NCBI GenBank assembly: GCA_964623775.1
Contig: CAZUVH010000003.1
Span: 79,400-143,399, forward strand
DNA: 64,000 nt
Direction: 5' to 3'
Source: an uncultured Candidatus Saccharibacteria bacterium
Lineage (GTDB): Bacteria > Patescibacteriota > Minisyncoccia > Phycocordibacterales > UBA2100
Shown: in pieces, positions 1-9,929 of the stretch
How positions within the stretch are numbered: position 1 is the stretch's first letter
Layout of the letters: every line of letters begins with the position of its first letter
Program-made: the position numbers and the translations under genes
Notes under the pieces: model-generated
The model's database searches: none
Told to the model about the DNA's origin: nothing
Seen by the model: only the letters and a program-made list of their open reading frames with translations

Positions 1-631
1 GAAAGCCGCGCTTTCGTTCAGGAACTATCAGCTCTCATGCGAGGCGTTCTCGCGCGGCGAGATCCAGATGGTCGAGTCCAACGGCGGCCTCATGCGTTGC
101 GGCTGGGTCCCGCTCCGGTATCACCGGCGCACGCCGCTTCTGGTGAAATACGCCAGATGGCAGTCGTGCATCACGCACATGCACCCGCTCTCGCAGGCGG
201 CATGTATTGCGTACTCAGTGCTCGTATCGCAGGTTCTCGACGGACTCCCGGTACCGGTGGCATGGGAAGCGACGAAGGAAGTCCTTCGTAAACCCGTCTA
301 TGCCAAGATCCCCGGGCTCGAGACGATCCTGAGTGTGAAGACCGAGAGACCGACGGACGCTGAGATCTGGCCGAACACCGGCGCCGCCGTACTTTCCTTC
401 CGAGTCGCGCTTTGGGCATCGCTCACAGCTACGGATTTTCGGGATGGAATTACAAAGTGCACCGTCGTCGGCGGCGACACTGATACCTACGCGGCCATCG
501 CGGGGGGAATTCTCGGAGCGCGTTTTGGCGTGCAGGGAATCCCTGAAGACTGGCTGAACGGGCTGCAGGGTCGCCAGGTTGTCGAGAGACTCGTTCGAAA
601 GGTCTACAAGATCACTCATCCTCTCTCCTAA
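1..631 (+). CDS. ADP-ribosylglycohydrolase family protein (C-terminal part; 5' end lies outside window)
   Basis: Frame continues open from the window edge. C-terminal motif TVVGGDTDTYAAIAGGILGARFGVQGIPEDW is typical of the DraG/ADP-ribosylglycohydrolase family. Confidence 0.7.
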   Translation, partial: KAALSFRNYQLSCEAFSRGEIQMVESNGGLMRCGWVPLRYHRRTPLLVKYARWQSCITHMHPLSQAACIAYSVLVSQVLDGLPVPVAWEATKEVLRKPVYAKIPGLETILSVKTERPTDAEIWPNTGAAVLSFRVALWASLTATDFRDGITKCTVVGGDTDTYAAIAGGILGARFGVQGIPEDWLNGLQGRQVVERLVRKVYKITHPLS

Positions 632-2691: not shown

Positions 2692-2759
2692 GCATCTACA
2701 TAAGGCATCTAATACATTGGGTGTCTTTAAAGAATTGTTCTTTGAGAGGAGAAGAAAAA

Positions 2760-4126
2760 TGACCGACTTCGTAGGACGCGTATTGCGACCCGAGCGACCG
2801 GATTGGATCGTCAGATCCCTGCTCGACGTCGACTTCTATAAATTCACGATGGGATATTTTATCTGGAAATTCCATCGTGGCGTTAATGTGAAATTCCGGC
2901 TCATCAATCGCAACACCGCGCTTCCGCTCGCAAAACTGGTCGATGAGAACGAGTTGCGTCATCAGCTCGATCATGTACGGACGCTCAAGTTCGGACTGAC
3001 CAATCTTTCATACTTGAGAGGTATGAGAGTCTATGGCGACGTGATGTTCTCTGAAGATTACTATGCATTTCTTGAGAATATGCGCATGACGCCGTACGTG
3101 CTCGAGAGGGTTGGCGATCAATACGAGCTCACATTCGAGGGCCCATGGGAAGTCGTCACATTTTGGGAGACGATAGCGCTTGCGATCGTTTGCGAGCTCT
3201 TGTACCGCAAGCTCATGAGCACGATGACCAAGGCGGAGCTCTCCGCGCTCTATGGTGCAGCGTTTGATCACCTTTATGAGAAACTCGCGACGCTCAAGCT
3301 CCGGTCCGGCATCAGATTTGCCGATTTCAGCCAAAGGCGACGTCACAGCTTCCTTTGGCAGCAGTCCGCGATCGAAATGGCGCAGGAAGTCATGGAGTCT
3401 CAATTCACGGGTACAAGCAATACGTGGATGGCATTCAACCGGGACTTGGTGCCTATCGGTACTAACGCACACGAGCTGCCGATGGTCATGACTGCACTCG
3501 CACCGACGGATCGCGCAAAGAAAACGGCTCAATATCAAGTATTGCGAGAGTGGGGGAAGCTCTTCCCGCACAACGCATTGCGTATCGTGCTCCCCGATAC
3601 ATACGGCAGTGCGCAGTTCTGGCGCGATATGCCGGTAGATCTAGCACACGAGGTCGCGCATACATGGCGCGGTGAGCGTGAGGATTCGGGCGATCCCGTG
3701 AAAGGCGCTCGGGCGTACGTACATTGGCTTATGTCAAAAGGTGTGAGTCATAAAGACATCAAAGCCAACAAGATCGTGATTCCATCCGATGGCCTCGACG
3801 TTGATTCAATGTATCGAATCGATCATGAACTTGACGGTCTTATTGGGCATCCGTTCGGTTGGGGTACCAACTTCGCCAACGGATTCGCAGGATGTCATCC
3901 GCGCGGAGCCGACAGGGCGATTGTGGACGGAGTGGGACTCGACCTGACGTACGATCAGCTCTTCCGCGGCCACTCGATCGTGGTGAAGGTGGAGAGCGCC
4001 AACGGCTACGGAGCTGTGAAGCTTTCTAACAACATCAAGAAAGCGACTGGTCGGCCGGAAGACATCGCTCGCTACATCAAGATCTTCGGCAGCGAAGGTC
4101 AGGTGTCGCAAGACGTATCGGTCTGA
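2760..4126 (+). CDS. pncB: nicotinate phosphoribosyltransferase
   Basis: N-terminal LLDVDFYKFTM matches the PncB LLDTD.YK.TM signature. GAGGAG RBS before the ATG at 2760. About 455 aa. Confidence 0.85.
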
Positions 4127-4183: not shown

Positions 4184-5107
4184 TTACTTACGCTGATTGT
4201 CCCATCGCTCGATCAGGCGCTTGACGAGCGGCTGATGCCACGGGACGAACATCGATTCCAATTCGTCTCGCTCGAACCACCGTGCTCCTTTGGCGTCGTC
4301 GCCGGGAGTGAGGGCACCATCACGATGTTTTGTCACGAAAAGGGAAGAGTAGATCTTGTCCTTTGACTTGCGGTAACGCGGATCGTCGATACGGATTCTC
4401 TTGCCGAGCTGCGTGTAGTCGTCGCTCGTGACGATATCCGGCAATTCTTCACTGCGTTCGCGCCGCGCCGCGTCTTCGTCGTTCTCGTCCTTTTCCGCGT
4501 CGACGAAACCGCCCGGTAGCGAATAAAGACCATCAAACCAACGCTTGCTTATGCCCACGACGCGCTGGCTGAGATCATTCACAATCGCGATGTCTGCCGC
4601 AGAATATGCGACCGCCGGCCGTGTCTGCTCGTGATGAATGATAGCTTCACGTGCTGTCATGTTGGCGGAATGCATGATCGATTTACGCAGATCGGTGCCG
4701 CTAACGTCCGAGACTGGTTCGATGTACTGGACAGCGTATTTCCCAGACTCTTTGTAGGCATCTAGAAAGCTCTCGCGAGAGCCGATCATCGTGACCTGCC
4801 GACTCTCGCCGTATTTTGAGCCCACGAGCTCATCGAGCCAATTGCTCCAGCGGTTGTGTGAGAACGGATGATCGCGAAGTCGCTCGATCTCGATATTCAT
4901 ATCCGGAAATCTCTCTTCCACCATCAGTCTCCGCTCTTGGAAGGTGAGGGGATCGCGGTCGGTCCGTAGTCCTCCATGATCGCCAAGCACGATCATGAGT
5001 TCGTCGCACTGCTCTTGCGCACTGCGCACGAGATGTAGGTGGCCTGGATGGAGGTCCGGGACTTGGAATCTGGCGACGATTACGCCGAGCTTTGGACGGA
5101 CAGTCAT
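4184..5107 (-). CDS. nadM: bifunctional NMN adenylyltransferase / Nudix ADP-ribose pyrophosphatase
   Basis: N-terminal cytidylyltransferase H-x-G-H motif (HPGH). C-terminal Nudix box with GG, E and REExEE-like residues. GAGGAGAAG RBS before the ATG at 5107. Start trimmed from the ORF-track start at 5185. Confidence 0.85.
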   Translation of the reverse strand: MTVRPKLGVIVARFQVPDLHPGHLHLVRSAQEQCDELMIVLGDHGGLRTDRDPLTFQERRLMVEERFPDMNIEIERLRDHPFSHNRWSNWLDELVGSKYGESRQVTMIGSRESFLDAYKESGKYAVQYIEPVSDVSGTDLRKSIMHSANMTAREAIIHHEQTRPAVAYSAADIAIVNDLSQRVVGISKRWFDGLYSLPGGFVDAEKDENDEDAARRERSEELPDIVTSDDYTQLGKRIRIDDPRYRKSKDKIYSSLFVTKHRDGALTPGDDAKGARWFERDELESMFVPWHQPLVKRLIERWDNQRK

Positions 5108-5194
5108 GACACTTCTCCTCTGTATTCGTAAAGATCTTTCTGCGGGCTGCATAATGTCACATTTCGTTTTTTTCTCAACGCACACTGCTTCTAA

Positions 5195-5213
5195 TAGTGT
5201 AGTATATACACTA
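5195..5213. promoter_or_regulatory. 19-bp palindrome TAGTGTA-GTATA-TACACTA, candidate NrtR operator upstream of nadM
   Basis: Perfect 7-bp inverted arms. Shares the TAGTGTA/TACACTA arms with the site at 7041. Lies about 88 bp upstream of the nadM start in the nadM/membrane-protein divergent region. Confidence 0.55.
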
Positions 5214-5441
5214 AGTATAGCAAGTCAACCCCGTCAGAAATAGCCCGCCCCGCAGACCCTTCAGGCGCGCCAGCGCGGGCGCGATTTCTAACGCGGTCAA
5301 ACAAAAAGACCAGGGAGTTGCTATTCGTCGGGCTTGATCACGTAACAATTTTATAGGGTGTCAATATCGACAATTTCTTTTTTTCTCATTATAGTCTCGC
5401 CTGGACTAAAGAGTTGAAACTGATCGAAAGGAGATCAAATC

Positions 5442-6236
5442 GTGGAAACATTGTTTGCTGGCGGAATTCTCGGCTTTTTTGCCGGCCTTGTCCTCTTCCT
5501 CGGGTGGTGGGCGTGGCCGCTACTGCTCCTGATGTGCGCTTTCGGAGTCTGCTTTAGCGTGGGCTTTGGCGTGTTCCCGCAGCGCAAGATTATGGCGACC
5601 ATCTTCCTCGTGCCATCAATGCTGCTTTTCTACCATCTCGTCGGCTGGGGATTGGTCGAGTTCTTCCTCAATCACTGGCGGACTTTGCTCTGGGTTATCG
5701 GCGGCCATCTCTTGATCGGCGGCGCATGGTGCATATTCGGGCGCTGGAATTTGAAGCATATGCGATTCAGCGGCAAAGCGAAGAAGGCCTTCGAGGATTT
5801 CGTAAAATCGTGGAAGAGCAAGATTTGCGAAGCGGACGATCCGAATCACTGGACGTCTGAACTTTCGCGCCTCGGGTACGCACCACCCGCCGGCGAGGGC
5901 TCGGGAAAAGAGCGATATTCCCGTGTCTCGGAAGCTGCAAAAACCAATGCAAACGATAAGCGGACAGCAGCGATTGCATTGCTCGCCAACAATGAGCTCC
6001 CGAAGGAGCTGGAAGCTCAGTGGGATGAGAATGAGTACTCTCACATGCCTCGCGCTTCTGAGCACAAGCTGGAGATTGCGTACTGGATCTTCGCTTGGCC
6101 TATCGACATTCCCGTCTGGATCGTCACTGATCTGGCCTGGGACTTTATCGAGGGTGTGATCAGATGGTTTGGCGGTGTGTTCTCGTGGGTTGCCAGCTGG
6201 CACTACAGGGATATGGATCCTCGCTACATCAAGTAA
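5442..6236 (+). CDS. hypothetical integral membrane protein
   Basis: GTG start preceded by AAGGAG. Several hydrophobic helices. No recognisable family. Confidence 0.5.
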   Translation: METLFAGGILGFFAGLVLFLGWWAWPLLLLMCAFGVCFSVGFGVFPQRKIMATIFLVPSMLLFYHLVGWGLVEFFLNHWRTLLWVIGGHLLIGGAWCIFGRWNLKHMRFSGKAKKAFEDFVKSWKSKICEADDPNHWTSELSRLGYAPPAGEGSGKERYSRVSEAAKTNANDKRTAAIALLANNELPKELEAQWDENEYSHMPRASEHKLEIAYWIFAWPIDIPVWIVTDLAWDFIEGVIRWFGGVFSWVASWHYRDMDPRYIK

Positions 6237-6282: not shown

Positions 6283-6969
6283 TTAGAGCACCTCTATTTC
6301 AGAAACTTTGTTTGAGGCGAAGCTGTAGAGCTGCGCCGGGCGGAAGCGGCCGCCACTTTTCTTGTGGGGGAGCTTTTTCAAAATCTTGAGCTTGAGAATT
6401 TTCTTGCGGAAATTGCGTTTATCGAGGTCGGTAGAGGTAAGGCACTCATACGCTTTTTCGAGATCAGTGAGCGTGAATTCGTGTGGCATGAGCTTATTGA
6501 TGAGTGTCGTGTAGTGCACGCGCGATCGCAGACGCTGAAGTGCCAAGGCGAGGATCTCGTCGTGATCGTACGCGAGGTTCTTTGCAGATTTTACCGGTAC
6601 CCACTTTGCACCATGCGAATCGCTCTGCTCTTTTTCGTCGAGCTTTTCCCACGGCACGAGCGCGAGGTAGGCGACAGCAACGACGCGTCCGCGGGGATCG
6701 CGTTCGATATGACTAAACGTATAGAGTTGTTCGATATAGATTTTCTTCGCGTCGATCCCGCTTTTTTCCTCGAGATGTCGCACGGCTGCCTGCTCGGCAG
6801 TCTCGTGGGGGAGGAGGAGCCCGCCCGGCAATCCAGGGACATTTTTAAAATGGGGTGGGCGATCGACGTTGATGAGGCGGACGTGCAGTACGCCTTCCTT
6901 GATCGTAAAGAGGGCCGTGTCTGCGGCCAATACTGCAAAGCGCAGATGCGGACTCGGGTCTTTTGCCAT
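6283..6969 (-). CDS. nrtR: NrtR-type regulator (Nudix-related transcriptional regulator of NAD metabolism)
   Basis: N-terminal Nudix-like domain plus a basic C-terminal region with winged-helix character. It sits among its classical targets: nadM, pncB, nadE, pnuC and nadR. Confidence 0.8.
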   Translation of the reverse strand: MAKDPSPHLRFAVLAADTALFTIKEGVLHVRLINVDRPPHFKNVPGLPGGLLLPHETAEQAAVRHLEEKSGIDAKKIYIEQLYTFSHIERDPRGRVVAVAYLALVPWEKLDEKEQSDSHGAKWVPVKSAKNLAYDHDEILALALQRLRSRVHYTTLINKLMPHEFTLTDLEKAYECLTSTDLDKRNFRKKILKLKILKKLPHKKSGGRFRPAQLYSFASNKVSEIEVL

Positions 6970-7040
6970 AGATGATTAATGGTAGCACTTTTGCAGTAAT
7001 TGTCAATAGTACACTTATTCACACAGTACTTGCATTTATT

Positions 7041-7066
7041 TAGTGTATGAAATACACTAAGTGTAT
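7041..7066. promoter_or_regulatory. two overlapping palindromes sharing AGTGTAT/ATACACT half-sites; candidate NrtR operator at pnuC
   Basis: TAGTGTAT-GAA-ATACACTA (7041-7059) and ATACACT-A-AGTGTAT (7052-7066) were read directly. The array overlaps the annotated pnuC ATG and the nrtR/pnuC divergent promoter region. Confidence 0.55.
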
Positions 7067-7772
7067 GAAACACATTATCTCGCGGCTCGCAGGTAGCTGG
7101 GAAGCCCACAAAGAAGGGCTCCTCGTAGCTGGTGCGATGTTCGCGGTGACCGTCGTGTATGAGACGATAACCGCACATTTTGTAGCGGATTACTCGCTTA
7201 ATATGTATGAATTCGTCGGGACGTGGTCGGGGCTCGTATGTGTATGGCTTTCACGCACACGCAATATATTGTGCTGGCCCTGGGGGATCGTGAGCTGTAT
7301 TTCGCTTGGATTCTTTTTCGCACAGATCGGTCTGCCAGGGCAACAGTGGCTCAACTGGGTGTACTTTACGGCGGTGCAATTGTGGGCGTGGCCGTACTGG
7401 GCATTTGGAGGCGAGCACTACGATGAGCTGCCGGTCACGAGGCTCTCATGGCTCGAAAGATTTCTCACTCTCGCGATGATTGCCGCCGGCACGGCTGTCG
7501 TATTCGCGCTCATCGGATACTTCTCGCCGGGATCGTTCTATCCGGTCCTCGATTCGCTCGTGGTCGCCTCGAGTGTCGTTGCACAATTCCTGCTCGGCCG
7601 CAAAAAAATCGAAAGCTGGATTCTGTGGCTCGGGCCCGTCAACATGCTCTCCATTTTCCTCTTTTTCTCGGCCGGTGCGTACACCCTGACGGCGCTTTAC
7701 ATCGCATTCTTTATACACGCGGCATTTGCGATCCGATCATGGCAGGCGGTTGAGGTAAAAACCGCATCATAG
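7047..7772 (+). CDS. pnuC: nicotinamide riboside transporter PnuC
   Basis: About 7 TM helices with a Trp-rich pattern (WPWG, WAWPYW) typical of PnuC. NAD-regulon context. Alternative start at 7065 (MKHII). Confidence 0.75.
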   Translation: MKYTKCMKHIISRLAGSWEAHKEGLLVAGAMFAVTVVYETITAHFVADYSLNMYEFVGTWSGLVCVWLSRTRNILCWPWGIVSCISLGFFFAQIGLPGQQWLNWVYFTAVQLWAWPYWAFGGEHYDELPVTRLSWLERFLTLAMIAAGTAVVFALIGYFSPGSFYPVLDSLVVASSVVAQFLLGRKKIESWILWLGPVNMLSIFLFFSAGAYTLTALYIAFFIHAAFAIRSWQAVEVKTAS

Positions 7773-7774
7773 GT

Positions 7775-8758
7775 ATGTACGGGCGCGGACTCGTCGTCGG
7801 CAAATTCTACCCACCGCATCGCGGGCACAAATATTTGATCGATGCTGCGCTCTCGCAATGCGAAAGTGTCACCGTCCTCGTTCTTTCGGAAAGTAATCAG
7901 TCGATTTCAGGAGACCTGCGATCTGCGTGGCTCAAGACGATCCACCCGACGGCTGACATACGACATATCGCGGACACTCCGATCGGCGAAGATGATTCTG
8001 CGGGGTGGGCAAAATTTACGATCGATTACCTCGGGTATGTTCCCGACGCGGTCTTCACATCTGAAGAGTATGGGCATGCATATGCACTCTTCATGGGCAC
8101 GAAGCATGTACTCGTAGACAAGGATCGTCTCGTCGTGCCGATTTCCGGTACGAAAGTGCGCTCGAATCCTCTACGACATTTTGAATTTCTCGAGCCATGT
8201 GTACGGAAGTATTTTGTGAAGCGCATTGCCATCGTGGGTGCCGAATCCACAGGCACGACGACGCTCGCAAAAGATCTGGCAGCTCACTACAAGACTGTCT
8301 GGGCCCCTGAATTCGGTCGGATGTATTCCGAAGGGAAACTATTTGCCGACAAAAATGCCGCATGGCGCAGTGAAGAGTTTGAGATCATCGCCCGTGCGCA
8401 AAATGATCTTGAAGACGCGCTCGCCGAGTCGTGCAACGGGCTCCTCATCTGTGATACCGACGCCTTTGCGACCGGTATTTGGCATGAGCGCTACATGGGG
8501 CGACGTTCTCCACGGGTGGAGCAGATCGCTGAGGCACATGTGCACGATCTCTACATCGTGACCGGTGATGAGATTCCGTTTGAGCAAGATGGCACACGCG
8601 ATGGCGAGCATATCCGGCATTGGATGCACGAAAGATTTCTCGAACGGCTAAAAGAAGATCATAAACCCCACATTATTGTTCGCGGCAATCGCGAGGTGCG
8701 CCTACAAAAGGCGATCGAGGCGATTGCGACCCGCTCTATGCACGCGACCGCTTCATGA
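7775..8758 (+). CDS. nadR: NadR-like bifunctional NMN adenylyltransferase / ribosylnicotinamide kinase (no N-terminal HTH)
   Basis: GKFYPPHRGH nucleotidyltransferase motif at the N-terminus. Walker A (GAESTGTTT) in the C-terminal kinase domain. Confidence 0.8.
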   Translation: MYGRGLVVGKFYPPHRGHKYLIDAALSQCESVTVLVLSESNQSISGDLRSAWLKTIHPTADIRHIADTPIGEDDSAGWAKFTIDYLGYVPDAVFTSEEYGHAYALFMGTKHVLVDKDRLVVPISGTKVRSNPLRHFEFLEPCVRKYFVKRIAIVGAESTGTTTLAKDLAAHYKTVWAPEFGRMYSEGKLFADKNAAWRSEEFEIIARAQNDLEDALAESCNGLLICDTDAFATGIWHERYMGRRSPRVEQIAEAHVHDLYIVTGDEIPFEQDGTRDGEHIRHWMHERFLERLKEDHKPHIIVRGNREVRLQKAIEAIATRSMHATAS

Positions 8759-8969: not shown

Positions 8970-9929
8970 ATGTTGACGTTATTTGATGTGGGGGCCCGTG
9001 CCCGTGCCCGTGCCCGTGCCCGTGCCCGTGATCCCATTTTCTTGGTCAAGTGGGTGGGCACAGCTCTGCGCGCGGCGAGCATGATGACACTCCTCATTGT
9101 CGTCTATGTAGTAGGCGCACCATTTTTTGCTGTCGCAGTACTCGCGCTCTTTCTGCTCGTTCTCACGCATATGACAGTAAGGCCTATATACGAAAGTATT
9201 AACCAGACCCTCGAATCTCATAAACTTTTTGTATCAAACGTGGCTCATGAGCTTCGCGGTCCGATGTCTGTGATGCAGCTCGACGCGGAAGCTGCGCTCC
9301 ACAATATCTCGCTTGCGCAACTCTCCGATGTTAAATCTAAAGAATTAATCGGAGCAATCAATTCTGACCTGAAAGGTCTCCATCAGATGGCCAACATCAT
9401 CAAGAATCTCTCAATCCTGACCTCCCAACAGTACGGAAGTGAACAACTTGAATTCACAGAAGTAAATCTCAGTGTGCTCCTCTCACGCCTGTGCGCATTC
9501 GTTGAGAAGGAATATGCATACGACAAATCCATTCATATCAAAGCAGAGAGCAAAACTCCGGTGTACATACTGGGTAATGAATCAGCGCTCGAGCAAATGA
9601 TCATGAATCTTTTGAAGAATGCCGTGCACTACAGCGCGGATGGCACAGGCATTGTCGCAACCACTCACCAGCATGAGAGAGGGGTGTCGCTCTCGATCAG
9701 GGATCACGGATTTGGAATATCTGAATACGATTTACCGCATATACTCGATCCCTTCTATAGAGCGCGGCATTCGCGTGCCGCGACAAATACGGAGAGCGGT
9801 AGCGGGCTTGGACTAGCGATCGTCGCTGCGCTTGCCAAGCAGCACAAGGCGACCGTGACCATCGCGAGCGTGCTCAAGAAGGGTACGACAGTAACGCTTA
9901 ATTTCCCCCTAATGGCGCAAACCGCATGA
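8970..9929 (+). CDS. membrane-anchored sensor histidine kinase
   Basis: H-box HELRGPM, N-box NLLKNAVHYS and G-box GSGLGLAIV are present. Hydrophobic N-terminal segment. True start is uncertain: 8970 or the MM codons near 9076. Confidence 0.8.
   Translation: MLTLFDVGARARARARARARDPIFLVKWVGTALRAASMMTLLIVVYVVGAPFFAVAVLALFLLVLTHMTVRPIYESINQTLESHKLFVSNVAHELRGPMSVMQLDAEAALHNISLAQLSDVKSKELIGAINSDLKGLHQMANIIKNLSILTSQQYGSEQLEFTEVNLSVLLSRLCAFVEKEYAYDKSIHIKAESKTPVYILGNESALEQMIMNLLKNAVHYSADGTGIVATTHQHERGVSLSIRDHGFGISEYDLPHILDPFYRARHSRAATNTESGSGLGLAIVAALAKQHKATVTIASVLKKGTTVTLNFPLMAQTA
8994..9030 (+). repeat. hexanucleotide tandem repeat (CCCGTG)x6 encoding (Ala-Arg)6
   Basis: Read directly. Six perfect units are in frame with the HK ORF if the 8970 start is used; otherwise they fall in its 5' leader. 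Confidence 0.9.

Follow-up and report, generated by a model that had tools for sequence, protein, structure and literature searches.

Rodionov et al. (2008, PMC2330246) characterised candidate NrtR sites as 21-bp palindromes that share a GT-N7-AC core and are placed either over promoter elements or in the stretch from promoter to start codon. The same work confirmed tandem sites at Shewanella prs-nadV by two complexes in electrophoretic mobility shift assays, described ADP-ribose as the anti-repressor, and listed the arrangement nrtR<#>pnuC-nadR-#nadM-pncB for Hahella chejuensis (PMC2330246). Bacteroides AraR has two 21-bp sites at araM, 3 bp or 42 nt apart, and in the structure of BtAraR on DNA the residues Lys179, Arg180, Asn181 and Lys184, together with the wing, define a GTGT motif under a dimer that covers 25 bp (PMC4666351). 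In mycobacteria and streptococci, NrtR acts on a palindrome in the control region of nrtR to repress its own gene (PMC6800001 and work cited there). Here we analyze a window of 64,000 nucleotides from contig CAZUVH010000003.1, in which a series of short half-sites coincides with the annotated start of pnuC, the gene of a nicotinamide riboside transporter, beside a divergent nrtR gene. This array is very probably the pnuC-proximal part of an NrtR operator cluster in the control region between divergent nrtR and pnuC-nadR, in the genome of an uncultivated bacterium of the Candidate Phyla Radiation (CPR). We read its sites as predicted NrtR operators because they match the GT-N7-AC definition, because nrtR adjoins them, and because the main one is conserved in orthologous loci.

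Predicted operators at the pnuC start codon

The region from 7030 to 7080 reads cTTGCATttatTTAGTGTATGAAATACACTAAGTGTATGAAACACATTATc. As stated in the original prediction, which was made from this sequence, the half-site AGTGTAT occurs three times in series, at 7042-7048 (+), 7052-7058 (-; ATACACT on the + strand) and 7060-7066 (+), with spacers of 3 nt (GAA, 7049-7051) and 1 nt (A, 7059). The 11-mer AGTGTATGAAA is directly repeated at 7042-7052 and 7060-7070, each copy containing an ATG (7047 and 7065), and the array sits on the annotated pnuC ATG with nrtR (6283-6969, -) on one side and pnuC, whose longest open reading frame (ORF) opens at 7047, on the other. The 11-mer is itself part of a direct repeat of 18 nt (7042-7059 and 7060-7077, 16 of 18 bases identical), which was returned by the repeat finder together with matching inverted repeats.

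Of the two overlapping palindromes that had been proposed within this series, only the first holds, as a perfect palindrome. The second, ATACACT-A-AGTGTAT, has its arms everted and simply marks where two adjacent operators meet; it is no binding unit of the NrtR type. What had been viewed as a triple half-site device is instead one conserved full operator followed by one lineage-specific full operator. The latter is completed by a degenerate fourth half-site, ACACATT at 7070-7076, which the earlier description had passed over. Both sites are 21-bp units; they overlap by 3 bp and their centres are 18 bp apart. The elements of the pnuC control region are as follows.

7040-7060, no strand: site 1, primary predicted NrtR operator, TTAGTGTAT-GAA-ATACACTAA, with core G7045 T7046-N7-A7054 C7055.
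7058-7078, no strand: site 2, secondary, degenerate predicted NrtR operator, TAAGTGTAT-GAA-ACACATTAT, with core G7063 T7064-N7-A7072 C7073.
7030-7035, + strand: predicted pnuC -35 hexamer, TTGCAT.
7053-7058, + strand: predicted pnuC -10 hexamer, TACACT, formed by the right arm of site 1, 17 nt past TTGCAT.
7065-7067, + strand: most likely pnuC start codon, 6 nt past the -10 hexamer and probably also the transcription start.
7047-7049, + strand: upstream in-frame ATG, the public start, within the left arm and spacer of site 1 and probably unused.

Site 1 is a palindrome without mismatch over its full 21 bp (9+3+9). Site 2 spans the start codon at 7065 and has a degenerate right arm, so that the palindrome search records two mismatches in its 17-mer. 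At the position of the third half-site the orthologs carry AGTATATG, AGTAAATG, TGTAAATG or TAAGCATG. Because the AGT in these words is the flank of site 1 and the ATG is the start codon, the third half-site reads largely as extended operator flank (ACT-TAGTGTA...TACACTA-AGT) joined to a start codon.

Scores and conservation of the sites

About 100 loci encoding relatives of NrtR were gathered through a profile scan of contigs, a metagenome scan and exact-protein look-ups. The contig scan, made with an NrtR alignment, gave listed matches of at most 61% identity and served for the survey of tandem spacings, not for footprinting; the close orthologs came from the metagenome scan and the exact-protein look-ups. 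The pnuC orthologs with usable upstream DNA were L093, L082, L094, L095, L096, L097 and L101/L102. Where a source name is attached, the nearest NrtR and PnuC homologs in the databases carry the labels Paceibacteria, Parcubacteria, Kaiserbacteria, Campbellbacteria or Nomurabacteria, which places the host in the CPR/Patescibacteria.

In related CPR loci whose NrtR is at least 52% identical, the word TAGTGTA-N5-TACACTA is found again upstream of pnuC, nrtR and nadM-like genes. From 17 such sites in orthologous loci (same identity limit, 0-1 mismatch to the word, window sites excluded) we built a symmetrised weight matrix of 25 nt, with the lineage-specific consensus ACTTAGTGTA-N5-TACACTAAGT. In the window its four best-scoring 25-mers are these.

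7038-7062: site 1, 35.2 bits, rank 1 of 63,976 window positions.
5192-5216: the site at nadM, 31.5 bits, rank 2.
7056-7080: site 2, 21.8 bits, rank 3.
6995-7019: site 0, at nrtR, 17.7 bits, rank 4.

The fifth-best score in the window is 5.9 bits, a level at or above which about 1.8 positions per 64 kb are expected. The exact tail probability per position is 1.9e-8 for at least 21.8 bits and 1.7e-7 for at least 17.7 bits. All four sites contain the GT-N7-AC core; in contrast to the perfect site 1, the nadM site is palindromic at 8 of 9 arm positions and site 0 is semi-palindromic. Upstream of pncB we found no NrtR site, the best matrix score there (5.2 bits) being at chance level.

In an alignment of orthologous loci, a check that the original prediction had asked for, the main copy of the array is retained in every pnuC locus obtained: site 1 scores 28.5-32.9 bits at the same place in L093, L082, L094, L095, L096 and L097. 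Three further samples of the same species (L098-L100) show no difference from the window in site 2 or elsewhere in the intergenic region. In L101/L102 the nrtR<>pnuC intergenic region (1366-1474) has two sites on the pnuC side and an equivalent of site 0, at spacings of 34 and 50 bp, which implies that doubling of the pnuC operator arose more than once. An 18-bp tandem duplication was considered as the origin of the direct repeat and rejected, since relative to L093, L095 and L096 the window carries no additional bases and its coding sequence shows no gap in the alignment.

More than one NrtR-type site per control region is common in diverse lineages (L101/L102 1366-1474; L001 4711-4800; L082 1582-1672; L009, L014, L052, L057, L065 and L080). 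Measured start to start, tandem spacings fall between 22 and 33 bp in 14 pairs and also at 42-45 and 62-66 bp, and a spacing of 18 bp occurs only in the window. The preferred spacings are 22-23, ~33, 42-45 and 62-66 bp.

The predicted pnuC promoter and start of translation

The word CTTGCA is invariant in six aligned loci, L094 and L097 included. Because the sequence farther upstream in these two loci is unrelated, the promoter is most simply taken as TTGCAT/TACACT. The invariant blocks in the window, L095, L096, L093, L094 and L097 are CTTGCA, AGTGTA, TACA and ATGAA, and the common layout is TTGCAT (or TTGCGT, TTGCAA), 16-17 nt, TACACT (or TACATT), 6 nt and ATG. The spacing of 16-17 nt between the hexamers is kept in seven loci, and the ATG lies exactly 6 nt past TACACT or TACATT in six of eight (window, L093, L094, L095, L096 and L097). 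A -10 hexamer in the centre of the operator, as found at nadM, was examined as an alternative and discarded, since the central hexamers are not conserved as TAnnnT in the pnuC orthologs.

This geometry bears on the choice between the two ATGs, which the original prediction had left ambiguous and which can now be decided computationally for 7065, from the fixed distance between promoter and ATG and from the alignment of N-termini. The ATG at 7047 is present in three of seven loci (window, L094 and L095) and is missing from L093, L096, L097 and L082; it lies between the two predicted hexamers, that is, upstream of the -10. Among 120 database matches plus the window ORF, 96 of the 121 PnuC N-termini fall within -4 to +2 residues of the methionine at 7065. 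The extension MKYTKC is translated operator, and the same artefact appears in relatives whose calls begin MYTKYM or MKYIKYM. No Shine-Dalgarno sequence precedes either ATG; pncB, nadM and ORF 5442 have GGAG-type sites. Thus pnuC most likely starts at 7065 and encodes 235 amino acids, and the public call of 241 amino acids from 7047 (P0121) is probably six codons too long. As the ATG stands 6 nt past the conserved -10 hexamer, where transcription should start, the promoter-to-ATG geometry indicates that the pnuC mRNA is probably leaderless.

The NrtR regulator and a separate, predicted site for autoregulation

The regulator gene and its own control elements lie to the left of the array.

6283-6969, - strand: nrtR, Nudix-related transcriptional regulator (Pfam NrtR_WHD PF21906, 9e-21; NUDIX PF00293, 2e-12).
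6997-7017, no strand: site 0, predicted NrtR operator on the nrtR promoter, TAATTGTCA-ATA-GTACACTTA, with core G7002 T7003-N7-A7011 C7012.
6979-7006, - strand: predicted nrtR promoter, TTGACA (7006-7001), 16 nt, TG-TACCAT (6984-6979), 10 of 12 in the promoter scan with an extended TG.

The window NrtR gives full-length alignments in the PDB to BtAraR (5bs6, E = 4e-27) and Shewanella NrtR (3gz5, E = 1e-20). Its recognition helix, DKRNFRK, has the same residues as the BtAraR helix, and the half-site AGTGTA contains GTGT. The Nudix box (residues 50-72) reads G-x5-E-x7-R-H-L-E-E-K-S-G-I, with R64 and K69 invariant in 27 homologs. Compared with the canonical REUXEE, two catalytic glutamates are replaced (H65 and K69), which suggests that the Nudix domain is a non-catalytic sensor, as in many NrtR proteins.

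The proposal that one array serves both autoregulation and pnuC control stands for pnuC, on the same grounds as the operator reading itself, and does not stand for nrtR, for which a separate operator exists that had not been noticed. The left arm of site 0 contains the nrtR -35 hexamer TTGACA. Because site 0 overlaps this hexamer and is kept upstream of nrtR even where pnuC is absent, autoregulation is best assigned to site 0 and not to the array. Among the pnuC loci, site 0 is kept wherever nrtR is adjacent: its distance from site 1 is 42-43 bp in the window, L093, L095 and L096, and it is missing from L094 and L097, in which nrtR does not lie next to pnuC on the upstream side. Its AAGTGTAcTATTGACAATA form is found upstream of nrtR in L081, L083-L087, L091/L092 and L002, and in most close relatives it stands 39-59 nt before the nrtR start, with or without an adjacent pnuC. 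In the closest NrtR homolog, P0003 (86%), nrtR is not adjacent to pnuC, and L091/L092 (84%) are likewise without an adjoining pnuC. Site 0 reaches at least 12 bits in 11 of the 15 distinct loci with NrtR identity of at least 57%, the conserved copies scoring 12.8-21.5 bits.

The nrtR ATG (6969) is only 9 nt past the -10 hexamer, which suggests a very short or absent leader. The layout TTGACA-N16/17-TAnnnT-N6-11-ATG at nrtR is common to the window and its relatives; with both the nrtR and the pnuC ATG 6-11 nt past the -10, leaderless mRNAs are suggested for this CPR clade.

Model of repression and its alternatives

In the model that we infer for NrtR binding, repression, the effector, the transcription start and the joint occupancy of sites 1 and 2, an NrtR dimer, with its Nudix-like sensor and winged-helix DNA-binding domain, would bind 21-bp palindromes of the form TAGTGTA-N5-TACACTA. 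Site 1 would fill the spacer of the pnuC core promoter, its right arm being the -10 hexamer, and a repressor bound there would exclude RNA polymerase. NrtR on site 1 would occupy about -25 to -5 of the promoter and NrtR on site 2 about -7 to +14, and either position should block the polymerase. The pnuC mRNA would start at, or within 1-2 bases of, the ATG at 7065, the ATG at 7047 being merely operator sequence. Site 2, the weaker and lineage-specific copy, would extend the occupied region to about -25 to +14; it would add a second dimer or a second binding register, and would tighten repression of pnuC-nadR. Transcription of nrtR would be autoregulated mainly through site 0, and nadM would be controlled by the fourth operator, centred on the nadM -10 hexamer. 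By analogy with characterised NrtR proteins, a ligand derived from nicotinamide adenine dinucleotide (NAD), such as ADP-ribose, would release NrtR and derepress salvage.

A more specific form of this model has two NrtR dimers filling sites 1 and 2 together, in one complex of ~39 bp (-25 to +14 of the leaderless promoter) that arose recently by point substitutions in the first pnuC codons and not by duplication; we regard this as speculative and rather unlikely. If it is true, the centres would be ~1.7 helical turns apart, the dimers would bind to different faces of the helix and share the 7-bp junction ACTAAGT, and the operator geometry would be tighter than any described or seen for the NrtR/AraR family.

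Several observations weigh against the model or parts of it. The position 18 bp from site 1 scores only -25.7 to +2.2 bits in the six orthologs that conserve site 1. Site 2 is for this reason specific to the lineage of the window, and, being absent from all six close orthologs, it may be dispensable or non-functional. The spacing of 18 bp is below that of every other tandem pair among the related loci (minimum 22 bp), and two dimers might collide, given the 25 bp that a BtAraR dimer covers. The TTGCAT/TACACT pair is weak by consensus (7 of 12 matches) and was not called by a generic promoter scan, TTGCAT having been passed over because only its TTG agrees with TTGACA. A strict search for the leaderless layout returned one other case in the window; because its threshold was four or more matching bases out of six in the -35 hexamer, this search missed pnuC itself and is uninformative. 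Finally, L082 and L101 have leaders of ~25-30 nt that also lack a Shine-Dalgarno sequence, so that its absence alone is no proof of a leaderless mRNA.

The low scores of the orthologs at the +18 position also favor an alternative explanation, in which only site 1 functions and the third half-site and the 11-mer repeat are by-products, with no effect on regulation, of the operator flank, the ATG-AAA and a small number of substitutions, neutral or templated. In the orthologs, flank and ATG do fix five of the seven bases at the third half-site (AGTnnATG), and the related loci hold no second tandem pair at 18 bp. We consider this explanation possible, though on balance unlikely. Even when the ACTAAGT flank shared with site 1 and the ATG(AAA) are taken as given, the probability of reaching 21.8 bits is still 2e-5 to 9e-5, for which reason we favor a genuine secondary operator of recent acquisition over noise as the explanation of site 2. 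Its score equals or exceeds those of the conserved site-0 operators, and it retains the GT-N7-AC core. Constraint on the protein offers no explanation, since the encoded N-terminal K-H-I varies among the orthologs, and a second pnuC-side site arose independently in L101/L102. The weakness of the predicted promoter would likewise suit translation of pnuC from 7047 off a promoter farther upstream, with the array inside the 5' coding region and acting, if at all, as a roadblock. The ATG at 7047 opens the longest ORF, it was chosen in the public call, and L094 and L095 also have an in-frame ATG inside the operator. This account is improbable, given the four orthologs without that ATG, the operator-encoded MKYTKC, the alignment of homolog N-termini to 7065 and the lack of a Shine-Dalgarno sequence at either ATG; moreover, in L094 and L097 conservation begins exactly at CTTGCA, leaving no conserved promoter upstream.

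Two other explanations concern what would read the palindromes. It is known that pnuC genes elsewhere carry riboswitches (Rfam pnuC motif), and the palindrome could be an RNA hairpin or riboswitch-like element in a pnuC leader that sequesters the start codon, comparable to the NAD+-II (pnuC motif) riboswitch. The segment 7030-7110, if transcribed, folds at -24.7 kcal/mol (z = -2.9) with a 12-bp hairpin over the ATG at 7047. Such an element is nonetheless highly improbable here: cmscan of 6850-7350 (E <= 10) returned only small nucleolar RNA and microRNA noise far below gathering scores, the arms are conserved in sequence without compensatory changes, the same word stands in both orientations upstream of different genes, no hairpin could arise from the half-degenerate form that is fused to TTGACA, and the predicted transcription start is downstream of the hairpin. 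The sites might instead be read by another regulator, such as the downstream NadR-like protein or an unlinked factor, as enterobacterial NadR represses pnuC through TGTTTA-N6-TAAACA and a nadR-like gene is in the operon. This we find very hard to credit, because the NadR-like protein has no helix-turn-helix (HTH) domain (Pfam reports only AAA_28 and a cytidylyltransferase domain), the motif has an odd spacing of N7 and not N6, it co-occurs with nrtR in loci without pnuC-nadR (L081, L084, L086 and L091), and the GTGT half-site fits the recognition-helix residues common to NrtR and BtAraR.

The NAD salvage genes and the predicted nadM operator

The genes around nrtR form a predicted NAD salvage island of nadE, pncB, nadM, pnuC and nadR, with a further operator at nadM.

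7065-7772 (public start 7047), + strand: pnuC, nicotinamide riboside transporter (Pfam NMN_transporter PF04973, E = 4e-36).
7775-8758, + strand: nadR-like gene, nicotinamide mononucleotide adenylyltransferase and ribosylnicotinamide kinase (Pfam AAA_28 and CTP_transf_like, no HTH domain).
4184-5107, - strand: nadM-Nudix (Pfam nucleotidyltransferase and NUDIX).
2759-4126, + strand: pncB (Pfam NAPRTase).
747-2648, + strand: nadE (Pfam CN_hydrolase and NAD_synthase).
5194-5214, no strand: predicted nadM-Nudix operator, ATAGTGTAG-TAT-ATACACTAA, with core G5199 T5200/A5208 C5209.

The nadR-like gene opens 2 nt past the pnuC stop codon, and the two genes are predicted to be co-transcribed; the pair is also found in L093 and L098-L102. 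The nadM operator was also returned by the 17-mer palindrome search (AGTGTAGTATATACACT at 5196-5212), 1.8 kb from the array. Its centre carries the -10 hexamer TATACT (5206-5201, -), 16 nt past TTGACT (5228-5223), and this layout of operator and promoter (TTGACA-N16-TATAnT) is repeated in L081, L084, L086, L091 and L001. Downstream of the nadM promoter comes a leader of ~80 nt that includes a Shine-Dalgarno sequence. In this leader (~5108-5187, -) a block ATGTGACATTATGCAGCCCG...GATCTTTAC is common to the leaders of L081 and L091, and a shorter block, TCTTT(A/G)(A/C)AAA, to those of L084, L086, L082 and L001; the leader has no match in Rfam.

The intergenic leader between nadE and pncB (2640-2765, +) folds at -50.5 kcal/mol (z = -6.85), with none of 200 shuffled sequences as stable. 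It contains a perfect 13-bp hairpin at 2664-2695 (GCGGAGTGGTGT-ATTCTC-ACACCACTCCGC) and two more hairpins, and in its outer stem UUCUCUUC is paired with the pncB Shine-Dalgarno sequence GAGAGGAG. It has neither an NrtR site nor an Rfam match above noise, and may be an uncharacterised cis-regulatory leader for pncB or the terminator of nadE.

Beside nadE, ORF 68-631 (+) matches only the C-terminal part of the ADP-ribosylglycohydrolase family PF03747 (profile positions 122-287 of 287) and may be truncated or have a mis-called start. An enzyme of this type would release ADP-ribose, the known NrtR effector. Between nadM and nrtR, ORF 5442-6236 (+) encodes 264 amino acids, a membrane protein as judged from its translation, for which neither a Pfam family nor a tblastn match in the related loci was found; the relatives hold different unannotated genes at this position. 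Beyond nadR, a (GCCCGT)x6 tandem repeat (8994-9031, +) encodes (Ala-Arg)n near the 5' end of ORF 8970-9929, whose translation reads as histidine-kinase-like, and (Gly-Thr)n on the opposite strand. The tract may be prone to slippage, or the start of this ORF may be mis-called.

Comparison with known systems

The operator arrangement at this locus is textbook for NrtR, the divergent nrtR<>pnuC-nadR order is already published, and the only unusual feature is the second, overlapping copy. Knowledge of how NrtR works is unchanged by these results. The novelty lies in the host clade, the lineage-specific consensus, the pair of sites that overlap at 18 bp and the fusion of operators with promoters at apparently leaderless genes. 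Within the searchable library, a literature search gave no paper linking NrtR with Patescibacteria and nothing relevant on leaderless mRNAs in Patescibacteria. That reduced, host-dependent CPR bacteria would keep a classical NrtR regulon over an NAD salvage island fits a reliance on scavenged vitamins. The three fusions are also seen in related loci: at nrtR an arm of the operator falls on the -35, at nadM its centre falls on the -10, and at pnuC an arm falls on the -10. Together with the constant gap of 6 nt between -10 and ATG, they provide rare, testable information on promoters and leaderless expression in Patescibacteria. For annotation, the pnuC start is probably 7065 and not 7047, and a function can be proposed for proteins publicly labelled 'NUDIX hydrolase' and '8-oxo-dGTP diphosphatase'.

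The locus resembles the published NrtR regulons in its palindrome and core, in the overlap with promoter elements, in the divergent nrtR/pnuC-nadR pair, in the inclusion of nadM and in a regulator that joins a Nudix domain to a winged helix. It differs in its host, a member of the Patescibacteria/CPR, a lineage absent from the 2008 survey (PMC2330246), as well as in a lineage-specific consensus and in an operator fused to the -10 of an apparently leaderless promoter. The mycobacterial NrtR motif, GTTTTCGA-N7-TCGAAAAC, is different in sequence, and autoregulation would here proceed through a separate site fused to the -35, and not through the site shared with the target operon. With enterobacterial NadR and the NAD+-II riboswitch the locus has its target, pnuC, in common, and the presumed logic of stopping nicotinamide riboside uptake when NAD is sufficient. 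Unlike enterobacterial NadR, the NadR-like protein has no HTH, and the motif differs in sequence and in its N7 (versus N6) spacing; unlike the NAD+-II (pnuC motif) system, the segment 6850-7350 has no riboswitch match.

The closest parallels for the overlapping pair are Shewanella prs-nadV and AraR araM, where two adjacent palindromes serve a single dimeric repressor of the NrtR family at the same promoter, as they would here. BtAraR has the same recognition helix, DKRNFRK, and the same GTGT half-site. The distance between centres is 24 bp in the AraR tandem and 18 bp in the window, where the two sites share 3 bp. In a further departure from AraR, the second site of the window is not conserved in close relatives, and the effector would presumably be NAD-related and not arabinose.

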